64,000 nucleotides of DNA from sequence record OP870146.1. The stretch is one strand, 5' to 3'. Both the position numbers and the translations under genes were made by a program. The notes under the pieces were generated by a model, which had not been told where the DNA came from, did not search any database, and was given only the letters and a program-made list of their open reading frames with translations. Positions 2 to 60,053 of this stretch are shown piece after piece. How positions within the stretch are numbered: position 1 is the stretch's first letter; each line of letters opens with the position of its first letter. Source of the stretch: Escherichia phage vB_Eco_F27.

Positions 2-841
2 ACTACAGATCAAATTTATGATTGTATTTCACGAGCGTTAGAACTTTATGGTGAATACCATTTTGACGGGTTGAATAAAGGTTTCCATGTATTTTTTGTT
101 GATGACGAAGAAAAATACCGTCACGGCGTATTTGATATGCGTGGTTCTAACGTATTTGCTGTAACAAGAATTATAAGAACAAACGTTGGCTCTATTACTT
201 CAATGGATGGTAATGCAACTTATCCATGGTTCACTGATTTCCTTTTAGGAATGGCTGGTGTTTCAGGTGGTATGGGTAGTAATTGTGGTAAATTCTACGG
301 CCCGAACGCTTTTGGCGCTGACCTTGGGTATTATTCTCAATTAGTATCTTATATGGGTATGCTTCAAGATATGATTGCTCCTCTTCCAGATTTTTGGTTT
401 AACTCTGCAAACGAGCAATTAAAAGTAATGGGTAACTTTAGACAGAAAGATGTCATTATCGTTGAATCGTATGTTCGCTCTTATATCGAGACCCATAAGA
501 TGGTAGGAAATACAGTAGGGTACGGTCAGGTAGGTCCTCGTGATTCATGGTCTATTTCTGAACGTTATGATAATCCAGACCATAATTTGGTCGGACGCCG
601 AGTTGGTGAAGATCCTGCAACCAAACAAGGCGCATATAACAACCGCTGGGTTAAAGATTATGCAACTGCATTAGCTAAAGAGCTTAATGGACAAATTCTT
701 GCTAAACATCAAGGTATGATGTTACCCGGTGGCGTTACTGTTGATGGTGTTCGATTAATTGAAGAAGCTCGTTTAGAGAAAGAAGCTTTACGAGAAGAGT
801 TATATTTACTGGACCCTCCTGCAGGTATTTTGGTAGGTTAA
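2..841 (+). CDS. 13: Neck protein gp13, C-terminal part (5' end lies upstream of the window)
   Basis: Reading frame is open back to position 2; sits immediately upstream of gp14 as in the T4 neck/terminase cluster; assigned by synteny and length. Confidence 0.7.
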
Positions 842-12835: not shown

Positions 12836-12861
12836 GGGAGACTTCGGTCTCCCATTTTTGG
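12836..12861 (+). terminator. Intrinsic terminator after gene 23
   Basis: GGGAGACTTCGGTCTCCC (7-bp GC-rich stem, UUCG tetraloop) followed by ATTTTTGGTTTTATTT. Confidence 0.8.
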
Positions 12862-12863
12862 TT

Positions 12864-13133
12864 TTATTTCTGTGCAATTTCGATGTAAGTTTTCAAAATA
12901 TTTTGCCAATTAGGCATACCTTCTTGGACATATGCCGGAGAACCATCTTTGTTTTTGAATGATGCAAGTTTATCAGTGGCCCAATAACCTTTAGCTCGAG
13001 CTTCAGAATCAACTTTCATCCATACTTTGTTGAAGGCATTACCATTAACTTTTGCACCATATTTTTCTACTAACTTAACCGCTTCAGCTTCCAGAACTTT
13101 TAAAGTATCTCGTAAGAAACGTGCTTTAGTCAT
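12864..13133 (-). CDS. Hypothetical 89-aa protein, antisense insertion between late genes 23 and 24
   Basis: ORF with GAGGAG RBS, its own early-type promoter (GTTTAC-N16-TGtGATACT) at 13166-13193; stop codon abuts the gene 23 terminator hairpin. Confidence 0.6.
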   Translation of the reverse strand: MTKARFLRDTLKVLEAEAVKLVEKYGAKVNGNAFNKVWMKVDSEARAKGYWATDKLASFKNKDGSPAYVQEGMPNWQNILKTYIEIAQK

Positions 13134-34351: not shown

Positions 34352-34966
34352 CTACTTAATGAAATTAATTTCTACCGGATGAACAACAGGTTGAGCAGTG
34401 ATATATTGAGTAATTGCTTTCATGACTAGAGCTTCAGAGCCAGGATTTTTCTCAACGAATTCACGTGCTTGGTTATGAGCTTCAAGTTCACTTAGTAAAC
34501 CACTTCGTTGACATCCACGGTCTTGAGTACCCTGTTCAGATAAAAAGGCGACGATGTATTTTTCATCGTCATACGGTTTAGACGGTTGAGCAAATGTTCC
34601 TTTACTTCCAAAAGGAGAGTTATGACGCCACATCACGCCGTTAGGAGTTTCAACCTTCGTATATTCGTGCGGGCCATTTTTCTTAGTTTCTTGATGTGGA
34701 ACTTCATGGACCTTAGGGTTAGGACATTCAATAAAATGCTCATCTAAATCAGTCGAGAATATTAAAGTAAAACAATTACTAAATTTACCAACACCTGCCT
34801 GATAAATTTTACCTTCAGACGTTCTAATTTCACAAACCGAGCCAGCATCAGTAACTTCTAAAACTTCAAAAGGCTCGATAAGATCATATGAGAACATGTT
34901 TTTAAGGCGTGGAGTAATATCCCCATTTTTAAAATTCATTTTATAAAAAGTATTAACTTTAAACAT
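34352..34966 (-). CDS. Hypothetical 204-aa protein
   Basis: Start reassigned to MFKVNTF..., preceded by GAGGAAA RBS and a GGGAGCUUCGGCUCCC leader hairpin. Confidence 0.55.
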   Translation of the reverse strand: MFKVNTFYKMNFKNGDITPRLKNMFSYDLIEPFEVLEVTDAGSVCEIRTSEGKIYQAGVGKFSNCFTLIFSTDLDEHFIECPNPKVHEVPHQETKKNGPHEYTKVETPNGVMWRHNSPFGSKGTFAQPSKPYDDEKYIVAFLSEQGTQDRGCQRSGLLSELEAHNQAREFVEKNPGSEALVMKAITQYITAQPVVHPVEINFIK

Positions 34967-35001: not shown

Positions 35002-35367
35002 TTAGATATCAAATTCGTTAAGAACTACATCAAAGATTGCTTCGAGATGTTCAGGTTTAGCTCGGTTACTCAGGATATGACGAATCCAAGTTTTAACCAG
35101 AAGTTTACGATTAACACCATTCCAGCAAGGATGAGTACCTAAATCACGCTGACGGAAATCATCATCTAATGCAATTTTAAAATTTGAACCTTCCATCGTG
35201 ATTGAAACCGTGATACCATTTTCAAATCGCATATAAACGTAATTAGGAGTCATGCACTGTTCGATTTCACAAACTGTACCGTTTTCGTGTTTCCATAAGC
35301 AAATAACTTCAGAAGAACCAGCAATACCGTTAGAAACATATTTACGTTCGAAGTTGGTGTAGTTCAT
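35002..35367 (-). CDS. Hypothetical 121-aa protein
   Basis: ORF with its own early promoter embedded in a 9-bp inverted repeat at 35398-35438. Confidence 0.5.
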   Translation of the reverse strand: MNYTNFERKYVSNGIAGSSEVICLWKHENGTVCEIEQCMTPNYVYMRFENGITVSITMEGSNFKIALDDDFRQRDLGTHPCWNGVNRKLLVKTWIRHILSNRAKPEHLEAIFDVVLNEFDI

Positions 35368-35397
35368 TTTATTCTCCAGATGTTTAAGTTGTTTGTT

Positions 35398-35438
35398 GGT
35401 ACAGGTCTATAATAACATAACCTGTACCAAAGTAAACT
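35398..35438 (-). promoter_or_regulatory. Early promoter embedded in a stem-loop (PeSL-like), upstream of ORF 35002-35367
   Basis: GTTTAC-N17-TATTAT; perfect 9-bp inverted repeat GGTACAGGT...ACCTGTACC brackets the spacer and -10. Confidence 0.6.
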
Positions 35439-35441
35439 GGT

Positions 35442-35810
35442 TTATGCAACTTTAATCCAATTGTCTAAATTTAAAACACCTTTGGCTTTCATTTTTTCTA
35501 TCAGGTTATCTGCTGTAATGCGTCCATTTTGATACCATGTAACATCTTCAGAGTAACCAGTTTCTTCGTCAACATATGTTTCTGAACGAATTTTACCGGT
35601 AATAATAGTTTTTAATTCGTATGTGTCACCTGTGAAAAAGTTTGCTAACACAATTTTCCAAGAGAAATCATCAGAAGGACCTTCAGGGGTCATACAACCT
35701 ACGAACTCAAATTGCTCTTTGTATAACATCCACTGGAATTCTTTAATTTCGATAGCTTTATAACCATCGTGGTCTTTACATTTGATGTATGAGTTCAGAT
35801 TGATTTTCAT
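35442..35810 (-). CDS. Hypothetical 122-aa protein
   Basis: ORF with its own early promoter at 35853-35882. Confidence 0.5.
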   Translation of the reverse strand: MKINLNSYIKCKDHDGYKAIEIKEFQWMLYKEQFEFVGCMTPEGPSDDFSWKIVLANFFTGDTYELKTIITGKIRSETYVDEETGYSEDVTWYQNGRITADNLIEKMKAKGVLNLDNWIKVA

Positions 35811-35905: not shown

Positions 35906-35935
35906 AAACGCACAAAAGGGAGACCGAAGTCTCCC
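35906..35935 (-). terminator. Intrinsic terminator after the 59-aa basic ORF
   Basis: Minus strand GGGAGACTTCGGTCTCCC followed by TTTTGTGCGTTT. Confidence 0.75.
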
Positions 35936-37486: not shown

Positions 37487-38057
37487 AAAAGTTTCGGATT
37501 TGTTCCCAATTCAGAGAACGAAGATTATTACGAGAGTACTGAATTACTTCAATACCGGCTTGTTTTAGAATGTCTGCCCAATTTTCAGGAGATCTGTCAT
37601 ATAATTCTGCGTATACAACCTTTTTAATACCTGACTGCGTAATAGCTTTAGTGCAATCAGGACATGGAGAAAGTGTCGTATACAACGTAGCACCTTCAAT
37701 AGAATTACCTTTACGAGCTGCAAACAAAATTGCATTCAATTCCGCATGGATTTCGTTATTAGCAGACCATGCACTATGAGCAGCCCGATGTTCTTTAGCC
37801 AAAACAAAATTATCCACCCGTCCAAATGCTGTAGTGCCTTCTTTAGGCCCAGCAACGATGACCGGGCTTGGTTTATTCTTCAACCAACCGTTTTCGGATG
37901 CATGTTCGCAACAGTTTGTACCACCTGAAGGAGAGCCATTATAACCTGTAGAAATAATGCGTCCATCTTTTTCAATGACGGCACCAACTTTCCATGAACA
38001 ACATTTTGATTCTTGAGAAATCAAATAAGCAATTTGAAGATATGTGCTAGCTTTCAT
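37476..38057 (-). CDS. cd: dCMP deaminase
   Basis: 193 aa (T4 Cd 193 aa); zinc-binding deaminase motifs HAE and PCxxC. Confidence 0.9.
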   Translation of the reverse strand: MKASTYLQIAYLISQESKCCSWKVGAVIEKDGRIISTGYNGSPSGGTNCCEHASENGWLKNKPSPVIVAGPKEGTTAFGRVDNFVLAKEHRAAHSAWSANNEIHAELNAILFAARKGNSIEGATLYTTLSPCPDCTKAITQSGIKKVVYAELYDRSPENWADILKQAGIEVIQYSRNNLRSLNWEQIRNFCGE

Positions 38058-39049
38058 TATTGAACCTTATTAATATAAGTTAACAGCTCTTTAGTTTGTT
38101 CCCAACTGATGCACGCATCGGTAACGGAAACGCCATAGGACATATTATCAGAAATTTTTTGATTTCCTTCATGTAGGAATGATTCTATCATAATTCCTTT
38201 GACCAAATCATTAGCTGCTAAATTTTTACCAATACCAATTTGATTGCTATAATGCCCAGCAGCGTTTGCATGGCTACAGTCAACCATTACATAATGATTC
38301 AGACCTACTGCACTTGCTTTGTTAGAAGCTTCTTGAATATCAGAAGAATGATAGTTCGGGCCGTTAGTCCCGCCACGCAATACGATATGCGTATTCTGAT
38401 TACCTTCAGCTTCAACAATGCCTACAGTACCATCGACGTCCATACCCATATACCGATGAGGCCAGGCGGCACTATACATCGCGTCTGTAGCTACTTTAAT
38501 AGAACCATTGGTTGCGTTCTTGAAGCCTACGCACATCGGTAGACCTGAAGCAATTTCACGATGTGTCTGACTTTCAGTCGTACGGGCGCCAATAGCAACC
38601 CATGAGAAAATACCAGAAAGATACTTAATCGTGAATGGGTCTAATACTTCAGTTGCTAATGGAAGTCCCATACGTAGAAGTTTACGACACAATGTTCGTG
38701 CAACTATAAGACCGTGGTTCATATCAAAACTTCCATCAAGATATGGATCATTTACAAGACCTTTCCAACCTACGGTAGTTCGAGGCTTTTCAAAATAAAC
38801 GCGCATCACTAACAGAACATTAGGAAGACGAGTTTGAAGTTCAGCCAGACGTTTGCCGTATTCAACAGCAGCAATAGGGTCATGAATTGAACAAGGACCT
38901 ACAACAATAAGTTTGCGTGGGTCTTCACCGTTCATAATCGAATTAACTTGTTCGCGATGAGAAGCCACTTGTGATGCGTAAGCTTCCGACAAAGGAATAA
39001 TCTCAGCCAGTTCTTTTGGAGAAATAAGTTTTCCGACGACAGGTAACAT
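38057..39049 (-). CDS. 3-deoxy-7-phosphoheptulonate (DAHP) synthase, class I AroG/F/H-like
   Basis: 330 aa; roughly half the residues match E. coli AroG as recalled, including GPCSIHD, VMRVYFEKPRTTVGWKG, IGARTTESQ(T/V)HRE, GFKN, ESxLxEGNQ, ITDACI; 1-nt overlap with the cd start. Confidence 0.85.
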   Translation of the reverse strand: MLPVVGKLISPKELAEIIPLSEAYASQVASHREQVNSIMNGEDPRKLIVVGPCSIHDPIAAVEYGKRLAELQTRLPNVLLVMRVYFEKPRTTVGWKGLVNDPYLDGSFDMNHGLIVARTLCRKLLRMGLPLATEVLDPFTIKYLSGIFSWVAIGARTTESQTHREIASGLPMCVGFKNATNGSIKVATDAMYSAAWPHRYMGMDVDGTVGIVEAEGNQNTHIVLRGGTNGPNYHSSDIQEASNKASAVGLNHYVMVDCSHANAAGHYSNQIGIGKNLAANDLVKGIMIESFLHEGNQKISDNMSYGVSVTDACISWEQTKELLTYINKVQ

Positions 39050-48105: not shown

Positions 48106-48192
48106 ATATTCCTCAGTATAGGTTGATAGACATTACTCCAAACGGGATAGTATTTATCCCGTTAATTTATTATACACTTTTAAACTGAAGCG

Positions 48193-48448: not shown

Positions 48449-48760
48449 TTATACCGCCATTTTAGCTTTGATAGCTGGATGTGATTCGTAATTTTTAAGA
48501 ACGAAATCAGAATGTGTCATCGTTCCAGTAACCCAGTCCATTTGGATTTTTGTAGGCCAATTCTCAAAATTACTAGGCCAATTAATTTCAAGAGAACATA
48601 ACTCTTTAGGTTCACGACGAAGAACTTCTTTGCATTGTTCTACATGATTGCTGTAGATATGCGTGTTGCCGCCTGAGAACACTAAATCACCTGGGATAAG
48701 GTTACACATCTTCGCTACAATATGCGTCAAGGCAGCGTACGAGGCAATGTTGAACGGCAG
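48449..48760 (-). CDS. td: Thymidylate synthase, exon 2 (codons 184-286 plus stop)
   Basis: Encodes LPFNIASYAALTHIVAKMCNLIPGDL...KMAV, the C-terminal part of thymidylate synthase; the apparent ATG at 48761-48763 belongs to the intron 3' end. Confidence 0.9.
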   Translation of the reverse strand: MPFNIASYAALTHIVAKMCNLIPGDLVFSGGNTHIYSNHVEQCKEVLRREPKELCSLEINWPSNFENWPTKIQMDWVTGTMTHSDFVLKNYESHPAIKAKMAV

Positions 48761-49776
48761 CATTATGTTCAGATAAGGTCGTTAATCTTATCCCGGAATT
48801 ATATCCAGCTGCATGTCACCATGCAGAGCAGACTATATCTCCAACTTGTTAAAGCAAGTTGTCTATCGTTTCGAGTCACTTGACCCTACTCCCTAAAGGG
48901 ATAGTCGTTAGGCATTTATGTAGAACCAATTCCACTTATCAGATTTTACACGGTAAGTAACTAATCCTGATGAAATTTCAAAATGTCTAGCCGCATCGGC
49001 TGCACATTCAAAAATAATCCCATCGCATGAAATCTTTTTGATGTTAGCTGGCTTTTTGCCTTTCATCTTTTCAGATAGTTTAGTTTTAGTTTTTTCTGAA
49101 TGTTTGTGATTAAAGAACGGGTTATTTTCACCTGAACGTTTTCGGCACTTTCCACAAGTATCGGCCGAAGATGGTATGCGAACACCGCATTTACAAAACT
49201 TGTGGTTTTCTGGATTCCATCGGCCATTTTTACTTCCGTGTTTACCATAAAGAGCTTTCCGACCATCAGGACCAAGCTTAAGCATCTTAGCTTTAACAGT
49301 TTCAGCTCGTTTCTTAGCAATTTCTTCTTTTAATGGATGATTTGAAAGCACATCGCCAAAAGACGCATCAGCAATATTATATCCATTAATTTTAGAATTT
49401 AGCTCTTTAATCCAAAAATTTTCTCGTTCAATAATCAAATCTTTCTCATATGGAATTTCTTCCAGTACAGAGCATTCAAAAACATTACCATGTTTATTAA
49501 AAGACCTTTGAAATTTTATAGAAGAGTGAACACCGTTTTCAAGGTCTTTAAAATGCCTCTTCCATCTTTTCTCAAAATCTTTAGCACTTCCAACATACAC
49601 TTTACCGTTTAAAGTGTTTTTAATCTGATAAATTCCGCTTTTCATAAACACCTCTTTTTATATAGAAGTATTTATTAAAGGGTAGTCCTACAATTTAGCA
49701 CGGGATTGTCTACTAGAGAGGTCCCCCGTTTAGATAGATTACAAGTATAAGTCACCTTATACCTAGGCCTAAATTA
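48761..49776 (-). mobile_element. Group I self-splicing intron in td (1016 nt) carrying the I-TevI homing endonuclease gene
   Basis: 5' end reads UAAUUUAGGCCUAGGUAUAAGGUGACUUAUACUUGUAAUCUAUCUAAACGGGG..., 3' end ...AUAAGAUUAACGACCUUAUCUGAACAUAAUG; matches the T4 td intron as recalled; exon 1 ends GGU and exon 2 resumes in frame. Confidence 0.88.
48908..49645 (-). CDS. I-TevI GIY-YIG homing endonuclease (intron ORF)
   Basis: 245 aa from MKSGIYQIKNTLNGKVYVGSAKDFEKRWKRH; GIY-YIG motif and C-terminal DNA-binding region very close to T4 I-TevI as recalled. Confidence 0.9.
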   Translation of the reverse strand: MKSGIYQIKNTLNGKVYVGSAKDFEKRWKRHFKDLENGVHSSIKFQRSFNKHGNVFECSVLEEIPYEKDLIIERENFWIKELNSKINGYNIADASFGDVLSNHPLKEEIAKKRAETVKAKMLKLGPDGRKALYGKHGSKNGRWNPENHKFCKCGVRIPSSADTCGKCRKRSGENNPFFNHKHSEKTKTKLSEKMKGKKPANIKKISCDGIIFECAADAARHFEISSGLVTYRVKSDKWNWFYINA

Positions 49777-50325
49777 ACCTAAGAAAACATCGACACTGCG
49801 TTGGTACCATTGTAAATCAAGATGTCCATTACGCACATTGAACTGATAGAACATATGGCAAGGAGGAAGAGCCATTTGGTCAATTTCGGCCGGGTTCCAT
49901 GCAGAAACTATTTGACGTCGATCATTAGGAAGAGCTTTAATACGGTCGATAGTTTTGACCAATTGGTCCACACCACCGAAATCACGCCATTGCTTACCAT
50001 AAATAGGACCAAGTTCGCCGCTATGATATCCAAGGTCTTTTGCCTGATTTTCATAGTTGTCGTCCCAAATAGTTTTACCTTGAATAAGACTACCATGAGT
50101 ACGAATACGCAAATCATTAACATTGGTAGAACCAGACATGAACCACAGTAACTCGGCAATACAAGCTTTCCATGCTAATTTCTTAGTTGTTACTGCAGGA
50201 AATCCTTTAGTAAGGTCCCATCGCAATTTAGTTCCGAATAGAGCAATTGTTCCGGTACCTGTACGGTCGTCTGTTTCATAGCCATTTTCTAAGATATCTT
50301 TAATCAAATCTTGATATTGTTTCAT
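49777..50325 (-). CDS. td: Thymidylate synthase, exon 1 (codons 1-183)
   Basis: MKQYQDLIKDILENGYE...active-site region ALPPCH...QRSVDVFLG; in-frame stop immediately follows inside the intron. Confidence 0.9.
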
Positions 50326-51692: not shown

Positions 51693-51722
51693 AGATACTC
51701 AAAAGGGAGACCGAAGTCTCCC
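51693..51722 (-). terminator. Intrinsic terminator after gene 32
   Basis: Minus strand GGGAGACTTCGGTCTCCC followed by TTTTGAGTATCTAT. Confidence 0.75.
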
Positions 51723-60028: not shown

Positions 60029-60053
60029 GGGAGACTTCGGTCTCCCATTTTTG
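60029..60053 (+). terminator. Intrinsic terminator after gene 35
   Basis: GGGAGACTTCGGTCTCCC followed by ATTTTTGT. Confidence 0.8.

Follow-up and report, generated by a model that had tools for sequence, protein, structure and literature searches.

A predicted early promoter of phage gene 30.7 overlaps a hairpin that probably belongs to read-through RNA from gene 30.8

Our analysis of the junction between genes 30.8 and 30.7 in the window (the whole 64-kb stretch of phage DNA under study) identifies a promoter and an inverted repeat which occupy the same few dozen base pairs and which, we believe, probably form a composite element of the PeSL type, i.e. a promoter combined with a read-through RNA hairpin that marks the 3' boundary of the upstream message. 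In such an element, an early sigma-70 promoter of 30.7 (P30.7) and an RNA hairpin would be written in the same 42 bp: the 5' arm would make use of the spacer, where a promoter is least constrained, the -10 box would lie in the loop and the 3' arm would coincide with the first dozen or so transcribed bases. Polymerase starting from P30.7 would do so within the 3' arm and produce a transcript that lacks the 5' arm and has an open, A/C-rich leader, whereas polymerase coming from the promoter of 30.8 (P30.8) through that gene would copy both arms, so that only read-through RNA would fold. We infer that the resulting hairpin, which is 11-15 bp long, lies 11 nt beyond the stop codon of 30.8 and folds at -18 kcal/mol, delimits the upstream mRNA on its 3' side by attenuating or pausing read-through and/or by protecting the 3' end of processed 30.8 mRNA.

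Results

Layout of the 30.8/30.7 junction

The region is up to 98.7% identical to Mosigvirus genomes (RB69/JS09-like T4-type coliphages), and its junction genes all lie on the minus strand, as do the promoter and repeat elements, for which minus is likewise the coding strand (Table 1). Read on that strand, the 74-nt gap between 30.8 and 30.7 is TAA(stop)-acca-GTTTAC-tTTGGTACAGGTtatgt-TATTAT-ag-ACCTGTACCAA-caaacaacttaaacatct-GGAG-aataaa-ATG, and 30.8 abuts P30.7 with no terminator between gene and promoter. The GTTTAC-N17-TATTAT motif proposed by the initial annotation proved correct, with a TG two bases before the -10. Over the 25 nt upstream of the P30.7 -35 hexamer, which comprise the 3' end of 30.8 plus 4 nt, the A+T content is about 72% by hand count against 62% for the window, and a dedicated A/T tract is absent here, unlike at P30.8. 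Since a simple promoter scan returned 40 promoter-like sites against 37.2 in shuffles, conservation was relied on instead; the activity of P30.7 and its start site are predictions, the latter (about 35402) following from the usual distance of 7 nt past the end of the -10 box (35409). An antisense promoter was also considered and rejected: there is a perfect TATAAT on the plus strand (35408-35413), but it comes without an acceptable -35, and the scan listed no site there on that strand.

Table 1. Coordinates, context and fold stability of the junction features and of other early-type promoters in the window (free energies in kcal/mol).
Feature	Position	Strand	Content or context	Fold	z
Gene 30.7	35002-35367	minus	ORF; Pfam Phage_T4_Gp30_7 and annotated relatives		
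Gene 30.8	35442-35810	minus	ORF including stop; Pfam Phage_30_8 and annotated relatives		
Genes 30.9, rIII, 31, cd		minus	upstream of 30.8/30.7; annotated relatives and Pfam		
Gene 30.8 stop TAA	35444-35442	minus	4 nt upstream of -35 hexamer		
P30.7 -35 hexamer GTTTAC	35437-35432	minus	fits T4 early-promoter elements (PMC2988021)		
P30.7 spacer	35431-35415	minus	17 nt		
P30.7 extended -10, TG-n-TATTAT	35417-35409	minus	in hairpin loop; TG 35417-35416, TATTAT 35414-35409		
P30.7 5' arm TTGGTACAGGT	35430-35420	minus	spacer positions 2-12		
P30.7 3' arm ACCTGTACCAA	35406-35396	minus	starts 3 nt after -10; holds predicted start (about 35402)		
Inverted repeat, repeat finder	35396-35406 / 35420-35430		only repeat found in 35300-35520		
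Gene 30.7 leader	35395-35365	minus	A/C-rich, unstructured; SD GGAG 35377-35374; ATG 35367-35365		
P30.7			abuts 30.8	-17.9	-6.4 (fixed frame)
cd.2 promoter	39464-39425	minus	abuts cd.3; -35 39464-39459; 5' arm 39454-39442; -10 39440-39435; 3' arm 39437-39425	-16.9	-6.1
frd.1 promoter	51223-51185	minus	abuts frd.2; -35 51223-51218; arms 51212-51202 / 51195-51185	-16.3	-5.1
RB69ORF231c promoter, weaker version	41590-41555	minus	abuts pseT.1; arms 41576-41570 / 41561-41555	-12.2	-2.9
rnlA promoter	44179-44150	minus	abuts denA	-8.3	-2.8 (fixed frame)
rnlA hairpin, 8 bp	44172-44165 / 44161-44154	minus	TACCACAA gga TTGTGGTA		-2.5 (own segment)
alt.-3 promoter			abuts alt	-6.2	-0.9
30.8 promoter			U-tract terminator upstream	-5.5	-0.5
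frd.2 promoter			U-tract terminator upstream	-4.7	-0.2
rnh promoter			faces divergent gene	-4.7	+0.1
Promoter of gene at 13133			faces divergent gene	-6.7	-0.65
P30.8 cassette	35940-35811	minus	U-tract terminator hairpin GGGAGACTTCGGTCTCCC 35935-35918, A/T-rich stretch, GTTTAC 35881-35876, TACTAT, AGACTTGTACCA		
nrdA-leader hairpin	48141-48163		starts 5 nt downstream of a -10 box		

The inverted repeat and the RNA that can fold it

The repeat brackets the -10 box of P30.7 with arms of 11 nt that are 100% complementary and 13 nt apart, so the perfect 9-bp repeat first described here (GGTACAGGT/ACCTGTACC) is real yet understated, being the core of a longer one. The window contains three inverted repeats that are perfect over 11 bp or more and have a loop of 3-30 nt, against 0.7 +/- 0.7 expected per 64 kb from dinucleotide shuffles, and because 0.7 such repeats are expected per window, an 11-bp repeat is not compelling by itself. 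As a 46-nt segment it folds at -17.9 kcal/mol (z = -4.45), a stability reached by none of 200 shuffles, and it folds on both strands (-17.9 and -16.4 kcal/mol). The stem is followed by ACCAACAAACAAC (CAAACAACUU directly after it) rather than by a U-tract, and a terminator scan had no entry at this hairpin, for which reasons efficient intrinsic termination is unlikely. Rfam gave no match at the hairpin at E <= 1 and none at gathering score across the whole window.

Because the predicted start lies inside the 3' arm, RNA made from P30.7 itself would be without the 5' arm and could not fold the hairpin, at odds with the initial annotation, which had placed the hairpin, as one option, at the transcript 5' end. 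Indeed, RNA that starts at about 35402 has a predicted fold of -0.7 kcal/mol, which 186 of 200 shuffles match or better. For a 161-nt read-through RNA the centroid structure is the hairpin, with the 3' arm ending 18 nt before the SD, and with SD and AUG of 30.7 unpaired. A source of such RNA exists, since a second early promoter lies about 440 nt upstream of P30.7, before 30.8, and no terminator intervenes. Most likely, then, the hairpin forms only in transcripts that arrive from 30.8.

An intercistronic hairpin confined to polycistronic read-through RNA could in principle be an RNase III-type processing site which separates the cistrons of the early RNA, as RNase III does in T7 early mRNA. 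To our minds this is very improbable; the stems seen here measure 9-15 bp, which is short for RNase III substrates. Passages on T4 mRNA decay in a review (PMC3014915) discuss RegB, RNase E, RNase G and RNase LS, and we saw no role for RNase III there.

Pairing is conserved while the arms change

In line with a comparison among related phages that the initial annotation had proposed, we compared the regions upstream of gp30.7 at about 35 loci from Mosigvirus, Tequatrovirus (including T4 and PST), Dhakavirus, Winklervirus, Marfavirus, Karamvirus, Gelderlandvirus, Klebsiella phages and IMG/VR contigs, and found the repeat conserved as a structure; gp30.7 itself is carried by about 990 phage records. 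The -35 and -10 elements are conserved across genera (the -35 being GTTTAC in every lineage but the Dhakavirus NC-G group, which has TTTTAC), whereas the arms change: seven lineage groups carry six arm sequences at the P30.7 position, each complementary to a block downstream. Among the close genera Mosigvirus, Tequatrovirus and Dhakavirus, there is hardly any variation in the core arms GGTACAGG/CCTGTACC, with the leader and the end of 30.8 diverging around them, and a C-to-T change in one contig (L015) converts one pair to G.U. GGTACAGG is common to T4 and the window, and T4 carries the same 30.8/30.7 element (NC_000866 129853-129920). In distant genera, where gp30.7 is only 45-56% identical, the arms differ yet stay complementary, reading GGTGAGAGTCT/AGACTCTCACC in Winklervirus, TTGGTGTAGGAGT/ACTCTTACACCAA in Marfavirus, GCTGATTGAGTGT/ACACTCAATCAGC in contigs L054, L055 and L061, and TTGGGTGGT/ACCACCCAA in L056. 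Karamvirus and Gelderlandvirus have CTCCGTTGTAT/ATACAACGGAG, of which the 3' block lies 31 nt downstream and contains the SD (-21 to -23 kcal/mol).

The 5' block begins at spacer position 4 in all 15 distinct sequences and, when it is fixed at spacer positions 4-12, each of the 15 pairs at 8-9 of 9 positions. Every one of pairs 1-7 is realised by 2-4 standard pair types; where pairs 1-8 depart from standard pairing (L015, L044, P545/L050), it is always as G.T on the sense strand, and the innermost pair (9) is A.A in four sequences and G.T in one (L054). A MAFFT alignment was gapped inside the 5' arm and out of structural register, so an explicit register with a shuffle control was used; this control, in which the downstream part is shuffled, takes account of the 3' block having been picked as the best match. 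The observed pairing was reached in 0.1-5% of shuffles for the hairpin lineages, against 17-87% for hairpin-less promoters without incoming transcription. With covariation drawn from the between-genus comparison, given the near-invariance of the arms within Mosigvirus, Tequatrovirus and Dhakavirus, the aligned loci argue that it is the pairing, not a sequence motif, on which selection acts.

This in turn argues against two further explanations. One is a palindromic operator through which a dimeric DNA-binding protein, of the phage or of the host, would control P30.7, as a perfect 11-bp palindrome overlapping the -10 box and nearly invariant across three genera might suggest. However, other genera keep complementarity with unrelated arms and different loop lengths, each hairpin promoter of the window genome has an arm sequence of its own and tolerance of G.U is not expected of an operator, all of which leaves us giving this idea next to no weight. 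The other is that the palindrome arose by chance or hitch-hikes, without a function of its own, in a promoter cassette exchanged recently. While roughly 0.7 such repeats per window are indeed expected, and the near-invariant arms of the closest genera could reflect recent exchange, there are six complementary arm sets at the same position which are significant against shuffles, and the hairpin recurs at other promoters, in three genomes and in a context-dependent manner (see below). Chance is already contradicted by these data and, to us, hardly credible.

The sense strand is favoured

The one-sided changes in L015, L044, L054 and P545/L050 give G.U pairs on the sense strand and would be C.A on the other. 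Consistent with a constraint on the sense strand, mean folds over 60 early-type promoters (from the window, a Karamvirus and a Tequatrovirus genome) were -12.1 kcal/mol for sense against -10.0 kcal/mol for antisense (Wilcoxon p = 9e-5), and where a promoter was significant on either strand (31 cases) sense was more stable in 26 and antisense in 5. These numbers come from all 60 promoters, on which the test was redone, as an earlier version using hairpins chosen by their sense score was selection-biased. A hairpin in the non-template DNA strand would share the same G.T tolerance and sense bias; what favours RNA over DNA is that the hairpins depend on upstream context. Sense-strand G.U, sense stability and a context of incoming transcription, all read from sequence, together point to read-through RNA.

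They bear directly on the initial proposal that the hairpin might occlude the -10 in single-stranded DNA, an idea that they do not support. More broadly, a DNA-level element could be envisaged, either a cruciform or single-strand hairpin that occludes or modulates the -10 or a structure that is itself a hotspot for recombination or nucleases. The palindrome is perfect and folds on both strands, mosaic boundaries occur at the cassette and, in RB49, the crossover of one mini-circle was mapped inside the loop of a stem-loop (PMC2839356). Yet, apart from the sense-strand signals above, the hairpins are largely absent where no transcription comes in, which speaks against a promoter-intrinsic function in DNA, and the crossovers we could map lie in -35/spacer or SD-ATG homology, of which 6-10 bp are enough for T4. 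Taken together, we regard a DNA-level role as decidedly improbable and continue with the hairpin as part of read-through RNA.

Hairpin promoters tend to abut an upstream gene

Fixed-frame scoring of the 10 GTTTAC-type promoters in the window's intergenic gaps (a later pipeline lists 12) revealed four further hairpin promoters besides P30.7 (Table 1). At the promoters of 30.7, cd.2 and frd.1 the -10 box sits in the loop; those of cd.2, frd.1 and RB69ORF231c are closer matches to P30.7 than the two sites to which the initial annotation had drawn attention, and had been overlooked. One of these two, at the rnlA promoter, does carry a repeat, though of different anatomy, as its hairpin lies wholly in the spacer and the first -10 bases and entirely upstream of the start; it is of the same broad class and occurs only in denA read-through RNA. 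The other, in the nrdA leader, is real as well, albeit located as given in Table 1 rather than at 48135-48160; the RNA of its own promoter would carry this hairpin at the 5' end, which is a different arrangement.

Whether a promoter has a hairpin appears to be related to what precedes it. When the frame was extended to the start codon, only the spacer was shuffled and a hairpin was called at z <= -2.5, spacer-dependent hairpins were found in the window and Karamvirus EcL8g at 12 of 19 promoters which a co-directional gene abuts, i.e. runs up to, as opposed to 0 of 11 other promoters (Fisher p = 0.0006). One Tequatrovirus genome gave 13/18 against 3/12 (p = 0.014) and the three genomes pooled 25/37 against 3/23 (p = 3e-5). 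The promoters are predicted, the crude gene calls (ATG start, at least 45 aa) may have assigned some contexts wrongly, and homologous promoters of the three genomes do not count as independent. It is, moreover, a tendency rather than a strict rule, with 12 of 37 abutting promoters lacking a hairpin and 3 of 23 others having one, including P30.8 of the Tequatrovirus.

Two comparisons suggest how such a hairpin is gained or lost. P30.8 and P30.7 share the sequence after the -10 (AGACYTGTACCA), and a complementary spacer is present only at P30.7. Similarly, L056 has the hairpin and a 170-aa ORF that runs up to the promoter, while the cassette of its sister L057 comes after a 30.9-like gene and a terminator, keeps the 3' arm and differs at 7 of 15 spacer bases. 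As both pairs retain the 3' side and differ in the spacer, the hairpin seems to be made or unmade through spacer changes.

The hairpin promoters lie in intergenic gaps of only 55-74 nt. In gaps as short as these the hairpin would replace the separate U-tract terminator found before other early promoters, and its overlap with the promoter would be a consequence of genome compaction, there being no room for both. It is because the hairpins take the terminator's place, and do so in gaps of this size, that we prefer to see them as delimiting the upstream message on its 3' side.

The foremost alternative is a switch of translation or processing that depends on where the RNA originates, whereby read-through and promoter-proximal RNA would differ in what they offer to ribosomes or to RegB/RNase E. 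It finds support where the spacer pairs with the SD, as in Karamvirus and Gelderlandvirus (CTCCGTTGTAT/ATACAACGGAG) and at 4 of 7 EcL8g and 6 of 13 Tequatrovirus hairpins of abutting promoters, and in the precedent of e, soc, 49 and I-TevI of T4 together with the protection of GGAG from RegB (both in PMC3014915). We think it unlikely as an explanation of the 30.7 element, where SD and AUG are left free when read-through RNA folds; an SD is not involved in any of the five window hairpins, and the known T4 cases have late, not early, promoters. A switch clearly applies, though, to the predicted SD-pairing variants of Karamvirus, Gelderlandvirus and many Tequatrovirus promoters.

Mosaic boundaries coincide with the cassette

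Compared with T4, gp30.7 of the window is 93% identical and gp30.8 only 37%. From one genus to another the neighbours of 30.7 are replaced, and in other genera no similarity to 30.8 could be detected for the ORFs upstream of 30.7. At the nucleotide level, homology to many Tequatroviruses ends at 35437, the edge of the -35 hexamer, and L056 and L057, whose sequences differ upstream of the cassette, switch at the UP/-35 edge. L011 is a mosaic of a window-type 30.8 end and an NC-G-type leader with the crossover within GTTTACTTTGGTACAGGT (-35/5'-arm block). Phage G2285 is without 30.8: a crossover between P30.8 and P30.7, which maps to the shared SD-ATG block CTGGAGAAYAAAATGAA, has joined its 30.7 to the P30.8 cassette. 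A switch within the stem was considered for G2285 and discarded, as the alignment puts it in the SD-ATG block instead. We note that the G2285 deletion is the product which excision of a mini-circle, formed in PeSLs through recombination of flanking cassettes, would leave. A gene inserted at the junction in JS09/ESCO47, suggested by two-piece matches, was likewise dismissed, given that their annotation has the same order of 30.9, 30.8 and 30.7.

Judged from these alignments, gene-content breakpoints do coincide with the cassette, in agreement with the PeSL model, and the crossovers that could be placed fall in the -35/spacer and SD-ATG blocks rather than in the stem as such. Hence, of the idea that the repeat marks a recombination hotspot, the part that stands is that the junction is a mosaic boundary; the mapped swaps do not appear to be bounded by the repeat. 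No special property of the stem is required for recombination, since T4 recombines at 6-10-bp microhomologies in experiments, and it would be the conserved -35/spacer and SD-ATG blocks that provide the short homologies for exchange or deletion of neighbouring genes.

Discussion

Taken on its own, the 30.7 element is one more PeSL-like cassette and changes little. What goes beyond the PeSL papers and T4 reviews consulted, in which we did not find it, is the structural selection with compensatory changes, the constraint on sense-strand RNA and the abutting-gene context, which may turn a descriptive motif into a testable hypothesis on insulation between densely packed phage early genes. With T4 carrying the same element, the hypothesis can be tested in a model phage. 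It is conceivable, if rather doubtful, that the early-promoter spacers of T4-type phages are systematically selected to pair with their own leader, be it the first transcribed bases or the SD. If true, each such early gene would have two RNA states, open when transcribed from its own promoter and closed when transcribed from upstream; this would extend the principle of e, soc, 49 and I-TevI from a few late-promoter cases to dozens of early genes and offer a reason why early expression falls after early-promoter shut-off despite continued read-through.

In T4, the ribosome-binding site of these four genes is masked in long transcripts and translatable RNA comes from a promoter that lies within the helix, while RNA structure protects GGAG from RegB, as set out in the review cited above (PMC3014915). 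The 30.7 element resembles them in that the predicted P30.7 start lies inside the helix, local RNA is without its 5' half and open, and read-through RNA folds; at the Karamvirus and Gelderlandvirus 30.7 junction the 3' arm even is the SD. It differs from them in that the helix of the window leaves SD and AUG free, i.e. lacks the defining masking feature, and in that P30.7 is of the early type, unlike the late promoters of the known T4 cases.

What recalls an intrinsic terminator is that a co-directional gene ends at a stable hairpin, in the very place where other early promoters have a true terminator. However, the terminators before P30.8 and P-frd.2 consist of GGGAGACTTCGGTCTCCC-TTTT, while P30.7 is without a U-tract, has a 13-nt loop and overlaps the next promoter.

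The closest relatives are PeSLs, the promoter-early stem-loop cassettes of T4-type phages (Arbiol et al. 2010, PMC2839356; Comeau et al. 2014, PMC4122927), the latter of which does not mention 30.7 or 30.8. In RB49 and phi1 the stem-loop is most commonly located between -35 and -10 or overlaps the -10; PeSL promoters were active, and with one RB49 stem-loop the drop in reporter expression was similar to that caused by rrnB T1 (PMC2839356). The authors proposed that the stem-loop attenuates transcription from upstream. PeSLs are repeated motifs with a preference for sites between small genes in variable (hyperplastic) regions. Judged by its sequence, the 30.7 element has what defines a PeSL and is a further example of these cassettes: a predicted early sigma-70-type promoter, a stem-loop, an SD and a start codon in a variable region. 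Its likeness to the published architecture, already pointed out by the initial annotation, extends to the overlap of the stem-loop with the -35/-10 interval and the -10 box as in RB49/phi1, to the four further hairpin promoters that repeat the motif in the window and to indels or replacements between close relatives (G2285, L011, L056/L057, Tequatroviruses) that the cassette adjoins. There are differences, too. Stem-loops of the T4/PST group were described just upstream of the promoter, whereas the stem of the window, like that of T4 itself, spans the -10 in RB49-like fashion; RB49 stems are frequently polyG/polyC, while the P30.7 arms are of mixed sequence and no U-tract is present; the only published experimental test of termination concerns a different, G/C-richer RB49 stem; and upstream of the P30.7 -35 lies the 3' coding end of 30.8 in place of a dedicated A/T-rich spacer. 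Finally, with crossovers located here in the -35/spacer and SD-ATG blocks, two roles which the PeSL proposal had merged appear to separate, the stem serving the RNA and the promoter and SD blocks giving homology for recombination.

Hairpins at promoters and gene junctions

An 18-nt UUCG-tetraloop hairpin, GGGAGACTTCGGTCTCCC, occurs in the window in four identical copies, three of which were inspected on their 5' side and found to be preceded by TTTA/ATT. The predicted early promoters of genes 30.8 and frd.2 (P30.8, P-frd.2) each have one such copy close upstream. GGGAGACTTCGGTCTCCC looks like a terminator cassette used several times over, and it may possibly correspond to the T4/PST-group form of the promoter-early stem-loop (PeSL), in which the stem-loop lies upstream of the promoter.

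Positions of hairpins, promoter-like sites and genes in the window
Feature	Position	Strand	3' of hairpin
GGGAGACTTCGGTCTCCC hairpin, copy 1	12836-12853	+	
GGGAGACTTCGGTCTCCC hairpin, copy 2	60029-60046	+	ATTTTTG
GGGAGACTTCGGTCTCCC hairpin, copy 3	35918-35935	-	TTTTG
GGGAGACTTCGGTCTCCC hairpin, copy 4	51705-51722	-	TTTTG
TATAAT in loop of P30.7 hairpin	35408-35413	+	
GGGAGCTTCGGCTCCC hairpin	34979-34994		
Gene 30.6A (204 aa)	34352-34966		
330-aa ORF	38057-39049	-	
Promoter-like site before nrdA	48141-48192	-	
Thymidylate synthase gene with insert	48449-50325	-	
Thymidylate synthase, Pfam profile 1-175	49774-50325	-	
Thymidylate synthase, Pfam profile 176-266	48449-48763	-	
GIY-YIG I-TevI-type homing endonuclease (245 aa), within insert	48908-49645	-	

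Pairing between the spacer and the Shine-Dalgarno (SD) region of the downstream gene was found at 6/13 hairpin promoters in Tequatrovirus BCH953P4 (L067-L070) and at four of seven in Karamvirus EcL8g (L063-L066). With such pairing, which recurs in many early promoters, the SD would be hidden only in read-through RNA arriving from the upstream gene; the Tequatrovirus 30.8 promoter is among these cases despite the terminator ahead of it. On the opposite strand, the loop of the P30.7 hairpin reads as a perfect TATAAT. No acceptable -35 hexamer was found 16-18 nt upstream of it and the promoter scan listed zero plus-strand sites at this position, so a plus-strand promoter was rejected.

Between the stop of 30.7 and the following gene lies the hairpin GGGAGCTTCGGCTCCC, at which DNA homology to Tequatroviruses and others starts (query 661/703). 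Downstream of it is gene 30.6A, at whose position T4 has an unrelated 95-aa gene, 30.6. The 30.7/30.6A junction is a second mosaic boundary, this one promoter-less. Escherichia phage G2285, a Mosigvirus (L028, 1071-1425), is without gene 30.8; its 30.7 ORF, shortened to 74 aa, runs on into unrelated sequence, and the cassette before the 30.7 coding start, a predicted promoter, is of the 30.8 type.

Comparison with related phages

The thymidylate synthase gene is split by an insert, at which Rfam reported no group I intron at gathering score, whereas td is continuous in the close relative JS09. Between cd and cd.2 sits a 330-aa ORF whose JS09 counterpart is annotated as phospho-2-dehydro-3-deoxyheptonate aldolase (DAHP synthase), and this putative DAHP synthase-like ORF is an unusual metabolic gene for the cd region of a T4-type genome.

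Upstream of nrdA, a promoter-like ATTAAC-17-TATAAT carries GCTTCA about 11 nt upstream of its -10 and resembles a MotA-box middle promoter. It is directly followed by a 9-bp hairpin and then UUUGG, an arrangement that may correspond to what has been reported from phage nt-1 as a 'promoter-middle stem-loop'.
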